Source: an uncultured Verrucomicrobiae bacterium
Lineage (GTDB): Bacteria > Chlamydiota > Chlamydiia > Chlamydiales > Rhabdochlamydiaceae
NCBI GenBank assembly: GCA_963731265.1
Contig: CAVSUE010000001.1
Coordinates: 352,001-416,000 of the forward strand
Reading direction: 5' to 3'
Length of the DNA stretch: 64,000 nt
Part shown: piece by piece, positions 1 to 26,697 of the stretch
How positions within the stretch are numbered: the first letter of the stretch is position 1
Layout of the letters: the number at the start of each line of letters is the position of its first letter
The notes under the pieces: model-generated
Told to the model about the DNA's origin: nothing
Databases searched by the model: none
Seen by the model: the letters and a program-made list of their open reading frames with translations, nothing else
Made by a program: the position numbers and the translations under genes

Positions 1-615
1 TTTTTTGACCTCGGAGTGTCATCTATGCAACTAGACAAAGATTACAAAGGGTTCAGTTTTTCCAAAGAAGGCCCGCTCGATATGCGTATGGACCCGACTG
101 GCGACCTGACAGCCAAAGAGATCGTCAATACATGGTCAGAAGATGAGCTTGCCCGTATTTTTCGCGACTTAGGGGAAGAGCCGAGGTGGAAAAGAGCTGC
201 ACAAGCTGTTACTGAAGCGCGCAGAAAAAAACCGATTTTTACGACAACTCAGCTTGCCGAGGTCATATCCGCTGCGCTAAAGACGCCCCTAAGAGGTAAA
301 TGGCATCCCGCGACCTTGATTTTTCAAGCTCTGCGCATGTGCGTGAACAACGAACTCGATGCGATCGCTCAAGGCGTCGCAAAAGCTGTCCATTTCCTTT
401 CTAAGGGAGGCAGGATCGGCGTGATGAGTTTTCACAGCTTGGAAGACAGAATAGTTAAAAATATCTTCAAAGAAGCTTCTTTCAAATCGAAAAAAGCGAA
501 AGAAGGGCCTGTTTTACGCCTTTTGACAAAAAAACCGATCGTCCCCGCTTTTGACGAAGTGAAGAAAAACCCGCGTTCGCGAAGCGCTAAATTACGTTTT
601 GCTGAAAAATTATGA
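1..615 (+). CDS. rsmH: 16S rRNA m4C1402 methyltransferase RsmH (MraW), 5' end outside window
   Basis: DLGVSSMQLD, GPLDMRMD, SFHSLEDRIVK and NPRSRSAKLR motifs; lies upstream of ftsL-ftsI-murE. The TGA stop (613-615) falls inside the mini-element end. Confidence 0.97.
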   Translation, partial: FFDLGVSSMQLDKDYKGFSFSKEGPLDMRMDPTGDLTAKEIVNTWSEDELARIFRDLGEEPRWKRAAQAVTEARRKKPIFTTTQLAEVISAALKTPLRGKWHPATLIFQALRMCVNNELDAIAQGVAKAVHFLSKGGRIGVMSFHSLEDRIVKNIFKEASFKSKKAKEGPVLRLLTKKPIVPAFDEVKKNPRSRSAKLRFAEKL

Positions 616-724
616 ACCCAGGCCTTAAGGACTGGGATTAAGTTGGGACCGAGCTTCGGACTCGGGCCCACATTGTTTTTGAAAATACCCGGCCCTTAAG
701 GGCGGGGTTTCCGCCGGAGGACGG
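612..724 (+). mobile_element. Start-codon-associated three-hairpin mini-element, copy 1 (rsmH/ftsL junction)
   Basis: ATGAACCCAGGCCTTAAGG...CCCGGCCCTTAAGGGCGGGGTTTCCGCCGGAGGACGG followed by ATGAA of ftsL; near-identical to five other copies. Confidence 0.93.
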
Positions 725-1096
725 ATGAATCTGAAGGCAACCCTTGCACGTATTTTGATCTGTATCATCGGCTGTGGAACGTTCCTTTATTCCTACGTGG
801 ACAAACAAAATGCGGTGACAAAACGGCGCTTGGATATTCCTGTGCTCGCCAAAGAAATTAAAGATCTGAATGAAGAAAATACCCATTTACGTTATGAGAT
901 CGAGATCTTTGAAAGCCCCGAGCATCTGATGGAGTTAGCGCGCCATAGCGAATTTAGCCATTTGAAGCATCCCATGCTCAAAGACATCTTGTCGTTGCGC
1001 GAAGGACTAGCTCTACAAGTTGGTTCTCAAAAAGCAGAAGAAGAAAAATCTGCTGCTCGACCGTTCCTCAATTTCCCGATCGGCGCCAAGCAATAA
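725..1096 (+). CDS. ftsL: Cell division protein FtsL-like
   Basis: N-terminal TM helix plus coiled coil; sits between rsmH and ftsI. Confidence 0.8.
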   Translation: MNLKATLARILICIIGCGTFLYSYVDKQNAVTKRRLDIPVLAKEIKDLNEENTHLRYEIEIFESPEHLMELARHSEFSHLKHPMLKDILSLREGLALQVGSQKAEEEKSAARPFLNFPIGAKQ

Positions 1097-1111
1097 TTTC
1101 ACAATCCTAAT

Positions 1112-24969: not shown

Positions 24970-25256
24970 TATACCGAAGTGAACCCAGGCCTTAAGGCCT
25001 GGGATTAAGTTGGGGCCGAGCTTCGTACCCCGCCAACATTGTTTTTGAAAATACCCGGCCCTTAAGGGCCGGGTTTCCGCCGGAGGACGGATGAACACGA
25101 AATTTGGTTTTTTGCTGCGTCGGGTAGGCACTCCATTTGAGCCCGCCTGCATCGCGCAACTTATTCAAGTTGCGCTGCTTCGGCGCCGGCGTTGCCTGGC
25201 ACAAATTCAGGGCGCATCCTTGCCAAATTTCCAAATTTCGAATTCATTTCGGTATA
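24970..25256. repeat. Family B foldback element (~175 bp net), interrupted by mini-element copy 5
   Basis: TATACCGAA[insert]ATGAACACGAAATTTGG...CCAAATTTCGAATTCATTTCGGTATA termini; core GCCTGCATCGCGCAACTT-ATTC-AAGTTGCGCTGCTTC. Confidence 0.8.
24979..25090 (+). mobile_element. Mini-element copy 5, nested in the left arm of a family B element
   Basis: GTGAACCCAGGCC...GGAGGACGG then ATGAA. Confidence 0.93.
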
Positions 25257-25262
25257 CTTAAG

Positions 25263-26588
25263 ATGTTTACTTCCCCGTGGCACTATTTTGTTGATCCTGT
25301 TCTTCAAGCTCCAACGATCGGAAGCATGTTGATGTGCTTTTCTTCGGCCCTCGTCGGCGTGATCATCTTCTTGCGCAAGCGGTCTTTGCTCGGCGAGGCG
25401 CTGTCCCATGCGGCCTACCCGGGGGTTGTCTTAAGTATTTTGATCATGGCCACTTTCTTCCCATTGGCTTCCGATTTTGCCGCTCTAGGAATTTTGATCG
25501 GGGCTTTTCTCTCTTCTTTGCTGGGACTGTGGGTCATCGAAATCCTCGAAAGGCGCTTTCGGGTCAAAAACGATGCAGCGCTCTGTTTTGTGCTGTCTGT
25601 TTTTTTTGGGTTTGGAGTTTTGGTCGCCAGCCGCATTCAATTTACCCATGCGCTGTGGTATAAAATGGCGCAAATTTTTCTTTACGGTCAAGCCGCGACG
25701 ATGACAGATGTCCATATGTGGATCTATGGCGTGCTCGCCATTTTTTTAGCTTTTGTCCTCGTTGTTCTTTATCGGCAGATCGCCATGTTGATTTTCGATC
25801 GCGATTTTTCTAAAGCGGCGGGCATTGCCGCCCGTTGTATCGACAGCCTGCTTTTAATTTTGCTCGTCCTGGCCATTGTGATCGGCATTCGCAGTGTCGG
25901 CGTTGTCCTGATGGCCGGGATGTTGATCGCTCCTGCAGTCGCAGCCCGCTCTTTAAGCCATCGATTGTGGGCGGTTTTTCTTTTTGCTGCGGCCATTGGG
26001 GCGGTAAGCGGTTTTTTGGGAAATTACCTCTCCGTGGAAATCCCGAGTTGGGGAACCCGCCAAGGCTGGGACTGGAAATTTTCCCTTCCAACAGGACCGA
26101 TGATTTTGCTCTCTGCTTCCGCGATTTGTGTTTTATCTCTTTTGTTTGCTCCGCAAAATGGCCTTGTTAGTCGATTCCTGCGCATTCTTCGTTTCCGACA
26201 GCAGTGCAGAGCGGAAAATTTGATGAAATTTTTATGGCGCTCAGGACCTGATGGCAAAGCATCGCTAAATGAAATTCAACGGTGGCAACCCCTTTCTTTT
26301 TTTCAAATCTGGAGATTGAAACGGCAAGGATGGATTGAAGAAAGCCCAAAGAATGTTCTGCGTTTGACCAAAGACGGTTCTCTTCGAGCAGGCCGTATCG
26401 TCAGGCTACATCGCTTATGGGAAGCCTATCTCGTTTATTTGGGCCAAGGCGTTGAAAAAGTGCATCGAAACGCGGAAGAAATGGAGCACATCATCACTCC
26501 TGAATTAGAAAAAGAACTGTCCGAACTTCTCGGCGACCCTAAAGAAGACCCGCATTCACAGCCGATCCCTCCGAAGGGGTCGATGTGA
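25263..26588 (+). CDS. ytgC: Metal ABC permease fused to a DtxR-family repressor domain (YtgCR/TroCR)
   Basis: ABC-3 permease motif GEALSHAAYPG plus C-terminal HRLWEAYL...AEEMEH...DPHSQPIP; likely start MFTSPW at 25263. Confidence 0.9.
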   Translation: MFTSPWHYFVDPVLQAPTIGSMLMCFSSALVGVIIFLRKRSLLGEALSHAAYPGVVLSILIMATFFPLASDFAALGILIGAFLSSLLGLWVIEILERRFRVKNDAALCFVLSVFFGFGVLVASRIQFTHALWYKMAQIFLYGQAATMTDVHMWIYGVLAIFLAFVLVVLYRQIAMLIFDRDFSKAAGIAARCIDSLLLILLVLAIVIGIRSVGVVLMAGMLIAPAVAARSLSHRLWAVFLFAAAIGAVSGFLGNYLSVEIPSWGTRQGWDWKFSLPTGPMILLSASAICVLSLLFAPQNGLVSRFLRILRFRQQCRAENLMKFLWRSGPDGKASLNEIQRWQPLSFFQIWRLKRQGWIEESPKNVLRLTKDGSLRAGRIVRLHRLWEAYLVYLGQGVEKVHRNAEEMEHIITPELEKELSELLGDPKEDPHSQPIPPKGSM

Positions 26589-26697
26589 ACCCAGGCCTTA
26601 AGGCCTGGGATTAAGTTGGGGCCGAGCTCCGTACTCGGCCCAACATTGTTTTTGAAAATACCCGGCCCTTAAGGGCCGGGTTTCCGCCGGAGGACGG
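26585..26697 (+). mobile_element. Mini-element copy 6 (ytgC/ytgD junction)
   Basis: GTGAACCCAGGCC...GGAGGACGG then ATGAA; its TGA is the ytgC stop codon. Confidence 0.93.

Follow-up and report, generated by a model that had tools for sequence, protein, structure and literature searches.

The 64,000-nucleotide stretch analysed here (the window; contig CAVSUE010000001.1, positions 352,001 to 416,000) belongs to the genome of an uncultured Rhabdochlamydiaceae bacterium (G000; 2.34 Mb, two contigs, 96% complete) and contains six copies of an element of about 113 bp with subterminal hairpins at both ends, without terminal inverted repeats and without an open reading frame (ORF). By most of the features tested, this element is a gene-less derivative of the IS200/IS605 family, that is, a transposable element of the palindrome-associated kind (PATE), a class described as the fused ends of an element (PMC4615843). 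Read on the strand opposite to its neighbouring start codons, it has the form TTCAT/left end ... right end TTCAY/. A preliminary description of the window had seen a mini-transposon that inserts at start codons; the element need not recognise start codons, since ATGAA reads TTCAT on the other strand, and TTCAT is a target of the IS200/IS605 family. We put at about two in three the probability that a Y1 transposase, TnpA, moves the element in trans and that its excess in the ATGA stop/start overlaps of operons comes from survival and retention of the copies there.

Boundaries and empty alleles

The boundaries of the element are given by alleles that lack it. Contigs of relatives from three studies (runs X1, X2 and X7), about 92-95% identical to the window, join position 8014 to 8127 and position 26584 to 26698 with zero letters in common; a further run, X20, barely covers the stretch. 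Because the empty alleles join without shared letters, the RTGAA side belongs to the element and the ATGAA side to the host. The RTGAA-side end, which reads GTGAA (TTCAC) in 34 of 45 cases and ATGAA (TTCAT) in nine, is absent from the empty alleles. Within G000, one copy of an IS605 pair carries the element on the start codon of its tnpA (L001, C1:927785-927897) and the other is empty (L002, C1:315905-316306), and a copy in the relative G003 has an orthologous site in G000 that is empty with a gap of 0. These exact empty alleles and pairs bear out the proposal of a mobile mini-element that makes no target duplication: insertion is 3' of a fixed tetra- or pentanucleotide, which is kept. IS608 inserts in the same manner 3' of a retained tetranucleotide (PMC3201880).

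Empty orthologous sites were expected to keep the ATGA overlap, and they do so in runs X1, X2 and X7. The ATGAA overlap of rsmH and ftsL is present and empty in the closest relative, G002 (among the other 15 relatives compared it is not conserved), and the ytgC stop reads RTGA in 5/5 relatives examined. The ytgC/ytgD junction of G002 (L192) reads ATGAACCC, followed by a second ATGAA that starts ytgD; this could be the scar of an imprecise loss of the element, or a short duplication. The same junction in the relative G013 (L193) has a different insert of about 150 bp after the ytgC stop.

Assignment to the IS200/IS605 family

In IS608, each hairpin has at its 5' foot a guide of four bases through which the cleavage sites are recognised (PMC3201880). 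At the left end of the element studied here, the hairpin foot carries the guide GAAA, and this matches the target TCAT. Guide and target change together, from GAAA/TCAT to CAAA/TGAT at a tnpA locus in a relative (L046) and AAAA/TTAT in the IS605 copies; in what we take to be the base-by-base pairing register of IS608, GAAA predicts TCAT. At the right end, the element itself bears the TCAN motif. A transposon-adjacent motif (TAM) TTCAT, a transposon-encoded motif (TEM) TTCAC and gene-less PATEs are described from Geobacillus stearothermophilus (bioRxiv 2023.03.14.532601).

Kinship to the ends of coding IS200/IS605 elements was found for the left end. Scanning metagenome contigs with the left hairpin returned full-size TnpB elements (L355 and L361, identified with Pfam, and L325, identified with tblastn) and an IscB element (L314), which have the core of hairpin 3, the guide and the ATGA target in common with the mini-element; the left end is also similar to the left hairpin of the resident IS605. 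The gene-less L333, L351, L343 and L338 share the same left-hairpin core and GAAA guide, as the search pattern required. Members of this set have ATGA targets and often lie on start codons, and the right end provides the upstream stop in L361, L351 and L338. They differ from the mini-element in coming from GC-rich contigs that do not look chlamydial, in TnpB-type spacers without a Shine-Dalgarno (SD) motif, and in a right end TCAA with a canonical GAAT guide. In metagenome contigs rich in GC, elements with ATGA targets and without an SD (L325, L333, L343, L351, L355, L361 and L367, TnpB-type or gene-less) occupy the start codons of long ORFs, and several of the TnpB-type relatives sit on the starts of recognisable genes. 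In L314, the stop of the IscB gene (19-1362) is the TGA of the target ATGAA, which also starts the next ORF.

The search for a parent covered the PF01797 loci of 61 genomes of the family, 23 of which have TnpA genes, and pattern scans of genome, metagenome, viral and plasmid contigs. The scan of genome contigs returned 64 stretches, and of the patterns run on metagenome contigs one returned none and another 75 stretches; viral contigs gave two unrelated-looking hits and plasmids three 30-bp chance hits. None of these scans turned up a coding element that has the same right end. G000 has only two PF01797 matches, both in IS605 elements; the copy on one tnpA start codon sits at the gene for the type of enzyme that probably moves the element. 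The IscB profile PF14239 had no match in G000, and as the positive control also had none, the absence of IscB is not established. Besides the two IS605 copies, a second TnpB-domain element (520 aa) occurs in about nine copies on C1 of G000 (e.g., at 43336, 55465, 160983, 450363 and 684109), and a TnpB fragment lies in the window near 4690-4835.

A preference for the lagging-strand template is known for the IS200/IS605 family (PMC5027513, PMC3971601). With origin and terminus placed by GC skew, the active strand of the element is on the lagging template in 26 of 33 insertion events outside overlaps (p=0.0013), a division into overlap and non-overlap copies that was made after seeing the data.

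The right end and the loop of hairpin 2

The tetranucleotides at the foot of hairpin 1 vary (TAAT, AAAT, CAAT, CATT, AATT). The stem of hairpin 2 has been replaced wholesale between subfamilies, and its 7-nt loop, which holds GAAR on the active strand, has been kept. Among 132 elements (the composite copy L069 was left out), loop GAAA accompanies 13 TCAT and 2 TCAC ends, loop GAAG accompanies 91 TCAC and 13 TCAT ends, and 13 others fall outside the table; as the copies are related, this covariation represents perhaps three or four independent events. It is suggestive of a non-canonical right-end guide displayed in the loop of hairpin 2. If true, a guide in a hairpin loop extends the IS608 model of end recognition.

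Copy number, distribution and variant forms

A BLAST search of G000 found 41 full copies along with 10 partial pieces; merged, they represent 48 insertion events. The ATGAA-side end is retained in 46 of these, and the next letters are ATGAA in 40; the remaining six flanks are GTAAA, ATAAA (twice), ATCAA, ATGAC and ATGTG. In G013 only 19 of 36 copies have an ATGAA flank. The specificity for ATGAA is therefore strong but, contrary to the preliminary description, not strict. Of 36 other genomes of the family, 15 carry related elements, and of 24 genomes of other families, in one sample, none does; a strict pattern found one genome outside the family among 301 of the order. Two of the overlap copies of G000 are also present in G003.

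A tandem pair at C2:65344 makes use of the element's own GTGAA end. Two neighbouring copies (C1:1280456-1280714 and C1:1281271-1281535 of G000) are each split after hairpin 1, at the same position, by inserts of about 150 bp that are related to each other. Forms of about 42-50 bp with a single hairpin and both ends kept (L186, L175, L061, L211, L255 and L338) apparently arose by recombination between hairpins 1 and 3; the SD is retained in most of the chlamydial cases. The start of the same gene is hit by different subfamilies in different genomes at L030 and L137, and again at L160 and L235; with similar N-termini, these appear to be independent insertions.

Occupancy of ATGAA sites

With the copies cut out in silico, 1932 genes were called with a simple self-trained caller, and every ATGAA was assigned to a class. 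Occupancy was 15/78 in overlaps, 11/409 at other starts, 2/19 at sites with a stop only, 9/1000 in intergenic DNA and 3/6485 inside genes; under a stricter definition of starts the corresponding values are 13/63, 10/276, 4/34, 9/1063 and 4/6555. The preliminary description had staked its case on an enrichment at start codons beyond that of intergenic ATGAA, and because the occupancy of overlaps and starts is far above that of intergenic sites, this part of it stands, above all for the overlaps (overlap against intergenic, odds ratio 26, p=1.6e-12). Overlaps that read ATGAC, ATGAG or ATGAT are never filled (0/75). Occupancy of the other starts falls with distance: 6/71 are filled when a gene on the same strand ends within 40 nt, and 1/162 when the gap is larger; divergent starts are filled in 4/174 cases, and in 0/94 when the gap exceeds 150 nt. 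Filled sites could not be told from empty ones by an extended target motif or by single-strand folding. All of the five full copies with the greatest divergence are overlap copies (at least six substitutions in 5/15 against 0/23, p=0.006, with a threshold chosen after the fact).

The rebuilt stop, the SD-like motif and hairpin 2

In three copies of the window, the upstream gene is ended by the element's own TGA, as read from the sequence in the preliminary description, and the stop falls at the same codon; yet the last codon of ytgC is changed from ATA to ATG (Ile to Met). In general, restoration of the stop alters at most the third base of the last codon, and the residue is changed in only one of the 15 overlap copies, that of ytgC. 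The rebuilt stop is real, but its interpretation as a repair function is not supported: it is a by-product, because a right end TCAN always reads NTGA on the other strand, and it also occurs in SD-less TnpB-type relatives that lie in ATGA overlaps (L361, L351, L338).

Of 115 native GGAGG sites, 18 have the distance of 4 nt to the ATG that was previously described for the element (mode 5), and the anti-SD sequence CACCTCCT ends both 16S copies. The predicted SD duplex is -9.5 kcal/mol with the element and +1.5 to -7.9 kcal/mol without it, with similar local accessibility. These features make a role of the motif in downstream translation plausible. An own SD is present in 1 of 15 filled and 19 of 63 empty overlaps (p=0.10). 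GGAGG is intact in 12/15 overlap copies, 4/8 copies at starts only and 9/15 other full copies, and 11 full copies have AGAGG. The spacer is variable and contains GGAG-type motifs in several unlike versions; the motif is missing in G021 and in the TnpB-type relatives, which suggests that it is not needed for movement and may be derived. The SD-less family in G021 has seven copies with a definable ATGAA-side end, a small set in which one copy precedes an ORF of at least 100 codons and one rebuilds a stop.

The notion that the element simply replaces translational coupling by SD-driven initiation is not supported. Its RTGAA-side end recreates an RTGA overlap, which leads into a mini-ORF of 9 codons, and in the G012 subfamily, where the element is 114 nt long and stop-free, 9/9 full copies are in frame with the downstream ATG; coupling may therefore persist. 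On the mRNA strand, hairpin 2 with the T tract that follows looks like an intrinsic terminator and was flagged as such, in a scan that is weak (10 sites against 5.1 in shuffled sequences). No sigma-70-like site was found inside copies 5 and 6.

Origin of the excess at overlaps

Under the explanation that we prefer, a Y1 TnpA would move the gene-less element in trans by single-strand peel-and-paste via a circle, acting on the strand that begins after TTCAT and ends in TTCAY. The left guide GAAA would select TCAT, and insertion would for this reason always fall directly before an ATGAA of the other strand. The right end TCAY supplies RTGA on the mRNA strand, by which the upstream gene of an ATGA overlap regains its stop at the same codon, and in a spacer tolerant of change a GGAGG at usable distance probably keeps the downstream gene translated. 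The element would not read start codons. Insertions inside genes would be purged, insertions in untranslated transcribed DNA would probably be polar through the terminator-like hairpin 2, and copies right behind a translated gene would survive. Copies between two genes would accumulate because ordinary deletions could not remove them. Survival and retention fit the distance gradient, the lack of an extended motif, the diverged copies at overlaps and the two copies shared with G003.

Several results weigh against this explanation. Overlaps are filled about eight times as often as convergent gaps (15/78, or 19%, against 3/125, or 2.4%; p=6e-5), mean divergence is equal between site classes (p=0.27 and 0.83), and families of near-identical and presumably young copies are already rich in boundary sites (8/12 in G012 and 16/36 in G013). 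The retention part is only partly supported, because insertion into convergent gaps should be harmless and mean divergence does not differ. The lagging-template bias is not significant over all 48 events (31/48, p=0.059), and the overlap copies do not have it (5/15; post hoc comparison with the other events, Fisher p=0.004). At the foot of hairpin 1, where the canonical right-end guide would lie, the tetranucleotide (NAAT/NATT) does not match TCAY. A cognate TnpA was not found beside the element's ends, neither at the PF01797 loci nor with tblastn, which detected no TnpA adjoining the left end in loci L059-L260 or L299-L375. The two tnpA copies resident in G000 are damaged: one has a frameshift and a changed HUH motif, and in the other the segment before the catalytic tyrosine is garbled, although this damage may be assembly error. 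Finally, the gene starts on which the site classes depend come from our own crude caller.

The same element and enzyme could produce the excess if insertion itself preferred translation starts and gene junctions, where the template strand might for instance be exposed by paused RNA polymerase or by conflicts between replication and transcription. IS608 is described as attracted to stalled forks and to rrn genes with high transcription (PMC5027513), and such a bias would agree with the higher occupancy of overlaps than of convergent gaps, with the boundary-rich young families and with the 10 of 15 overlap copies that have the orientation disfavoured by lagging-strand insertion of the IS608 type. 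However, filled sites have neither an extended sequence motif nor a folding difference, there is no preference for the first starts of transcription units, and the oldest copies are the overlap copies. We also know of no feature of overlap DNA that a transposase could sense, and consider targeting of this kind unlikely. We regard it as similarly improbable that the host keeps the element because insertion at an SD-less overlap raises or uncouples downstream translation. The scarcity of own SDs in filled overlaps, the stronger predicted duplex and the GGAG-type motifs in several different spacers point in this direction, as do the degraded copies of G001, four of four of which precede ORFs of at least 63 codons, with three keeping only the SD end; remnants with the SD end are, however, easier to detect with the patterns used. 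GGAGG is not clearly better kept at starts, close relatives do not have the same sites, a pattern more in keeping with turnover than with fixation, and the genes hit are functionally unrelated.

Because both ends read RTGAA, nine of 45 RTGAA-side ends are ATGAA and several palindromes are present, one might also think of a classical MITE (miniature transposable element of inverted-repeat type) with a 5-bp ATGAA duplication, or of a repetitive extragenic palindrome (REP or REPIN) spread by a REP-associated tyrosine transposase (RAYT). Either origin is very hard to credit and is largely refuted by the exact empty alleles. There are no terminal inverted repeats and no target duplication, and 34 of 45 RTGAA-side ends are GTGAA while empty sites carry ATGAA once. 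REP sequences are described with a GTAG/GTGG tetranucleotide at the hairpin foot (PMC6006769); the element has none, and the only PF01797 matches in the genome are of the IS605 type.

A bolder variant, doubtful in our view although it deserves mention, is that one lineage of IS200/IS605 mini-elements has made operon junctions its niche, with a rebuilt stop, a re-initiation codon, a fresh SD and a middle hairpin of dual role. As DNA, the loop of hairpin 2 would display the right-end guide away from the hairpin bound by TnpA; as RNA, hairpin 2 would terminate transcription unless a ribosome leaving the upstream gene masked it. Only right behind a translated gene would the element then be nearly silent, and to this end the SD would have arisen several times in the free spacer.

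Comparison with described elements

We found no described element with this combination of features in the literature within reach, which excluded subscription papers and the figures and supplements of preprints. The closest are the PATEs of haloarchaea (PMC4615843) and of G. stearothermophilus, the latter related to ISGst1 and ISGst5 (bioRxiv 2023.03.14.532601), which are described with fused ends, no ORF, subterminal hairpins and insertion 3' of a fixed motif without duplication. The TAM TTCAT is that of the IscB element ISGst5 and the TEM TTCAC that of ISGst2 (same preprint). In a comparison of texts, made without the figures of end sequences, the element departs from the described PATEs in its SD-like left spacer, in the filling of 19% of matching overlaps, and in the possible guide in the loop of the middle hairpin. 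With IS608 of Helicobacter pylori and ISDra2, as far as their accounts could be consulted (PMC3201880, PMC5027513, PMC3971601), it shares a four-base guide 5' of the left hairpin foot, a target that is kept, a right end TCAN and, for the non-overlap copies, the lagging-template preference; unlike them it has no tnpA or tnpB, the target TCAT, a left spacer of 13 nt, and a right-end motif that abuts hairpin 1 and is not matched by the foot tetranucleotide.

Hairpin repeats directly before genes and with a ribosome-binding site are known as Neisseria REP2 (CREN), regarded as portable gene starts, and Borrelia IR-A (PMC3184786). In that account these have their own promoter and ATG and no described site-specific transposition, whereas here the host target provides the downstream ATG and the upstream gene has its stop rebuilt; the SD-like motif is all that they have in common. 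Free IS605 stem-loops near genes are also known in Borrelia (PMC2775950). IStrons (bioRxiv 2023.11.20.567912), as presented in the text of that preprint, are similar as elements of IS605/IS607 type that limit the cost of insertion in expressed DNA, but they splice out of the RNA, whereas the mini-element remains part of the mRNA, where it would depend on the stop that it rebuilds and the new ribosome-binding site that it brings.

The fixed target of a transposon can in this way make operon overlaps, such as those of rsmH-ftsL-ftsI, which are the narrowest places of a compact genome, its most heavily filled sites. The resulting natural pairs of filled and empty overlaps can be used to ask what translational coupling is worth in vivo, and the clan of elements with a TCAT target, which has SD-bearing and SD-less lineages, offers a comparison for whether selfish elements evolve signals that spare the host. 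Since it lands precisely before an ATG and makes no duplication, the 113-bp element might also serve as a tool to equip native starts with a ribosome-binding site.

The copies and other features of the window

The six copies lie where the preliminary description placed them, each followed by ATGAA on its own strand (Table 1). The layout of the hairpins is as described overall, with mismatches in hairpin 1 of the copies at 612 and 18726, and GGAGG is present in all window copies except that at 18726. Four copies abut the ATG of long ORFs (725, 8014, 9511 and 26698), although the name ftsL for one of these rests on position; the copy at 24979 is not at a gene start. Three of the five ATGAA overlaps in the window are filled and two are empty, and the ATGAC overlaps (ytgA/B, hrcA/grpE and grpE/dnaK), named earlier as unoccupied, are so (0/3). 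Both strands of the element fold far more stably than shuffled sequences (z -5.4 to -6.8, 200 shuffles). A search of Rfam gave no match at the gathering score, only two chance hits (18 bits against a cut-off of 39).

Table 1. Copies of the mini-element, parts of copy 6 and neighbouring features, with positions in the window (strand of copies: orientation of ATGAA)
Feature	Position	Strand	Remarks
Element copy 1	612..724	+	In rsmH/ftsL ATGA overlap
Element copy 2	8015..8126	-	In ATGA overlap of oxidoreductase and VTT-protein genes; empty allele 8014 to 8127 in X1, X2, X7
Element copy 3	9512..9624	-	On oxidoreductase start codon, no overlap; empty allele in X1, X2
Element copy 4	18726..18839	+	Intergenic, with AGAGG; the ORF that follows has 38 codons and no Pfam hit; X1 has an empty allele with ATGAA kept
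Element copy 5	24979..25090	+	Nested at ATGAA inside terminal repeat of another repeat element
Element copy 6	26585..26697	+	In ytgC/ytgD ATGA overlap; empty allele 26584 to 26698 in X1, X2, X7
Right-end cleavage motif TTCAC	26585..26589	-	GTGAA on +, source of the TGA stop and of a GTG; part of the element, lacking in empty alleles
Hairpin 1 (right-end subterminal palindrome)	26590..26609		From folding
Hairpin 2	26616..26643		7-nt loop YTTCGNA kept, stem varies by subfamily; terminator-like with following T tract on +
Candidate right-end guide GAAR in hairpin-2 loop	26627-26630	-	Variant in copy 6
Hairpin 3 (left-end subterminal palindrome)	26660..26681		Core in common with full-size TnpB and IscB elements
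Left-end guide GAAA at hairpin foot	26681..26684	-
SD-like GGAGG	26689..26693	+	Within the spacer that separates guide and cleavage site; 4 nt before ATG
Target ATGAA (TTCAT on active strand)	26698..26702	+	Host-derived; ytgD start in copy 6
rsmH (mraW), 3' part	16..615	+	PF01795; stop is the element's TGA
ftsL-like ORF, 123 aa	725..1096	+	Named by position between rsmH and ftsI; no Pfam hit
VTT-domain (TVP38/DedA-like) gene	7310..8014	-	PF09335
Pyridine nucleotide-disulphide oxidoreductase	8123..9511	-	PF07992; starts at copy 3, stops in copy 2
ytgC-like ABC-3 permease with DtxR-type C-terminal domain	25263..26588	+	PF00950, PF02742; stop is the element's TGA
ytgD-like ABC-3 permease	26698..27669	+	PF00950
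Host repeat around copy 5, inverted ends	24968..25262		183 bp without copy 5; directly before ytgC start

The repeat that harbors copy 5 gave eight BLAST hits in the genome, itself included, and the whole 295 bp of repeat and copy are absent in X1, X2 and X7. Its inverted ends begin TATACCGAA and are flanked by TA, and many related ends occur elsewhere in the genome.

Genes of the window identified with Pfam include an ATP/ADP translocase and the ytg operon, which suggest a chlamydia of the environmental kind. Paralogous ORFs at 44372-45484 and 48647-50851 consist of 63-bp (21-residue) tandem repeats, and their flanks are duplicated as well. The ORF at 17391-18581 encodes a eukaryote-like ubiquitin C-terminal hydrolase domain (PF00443) and is possibly a secreted, host-directed protein.

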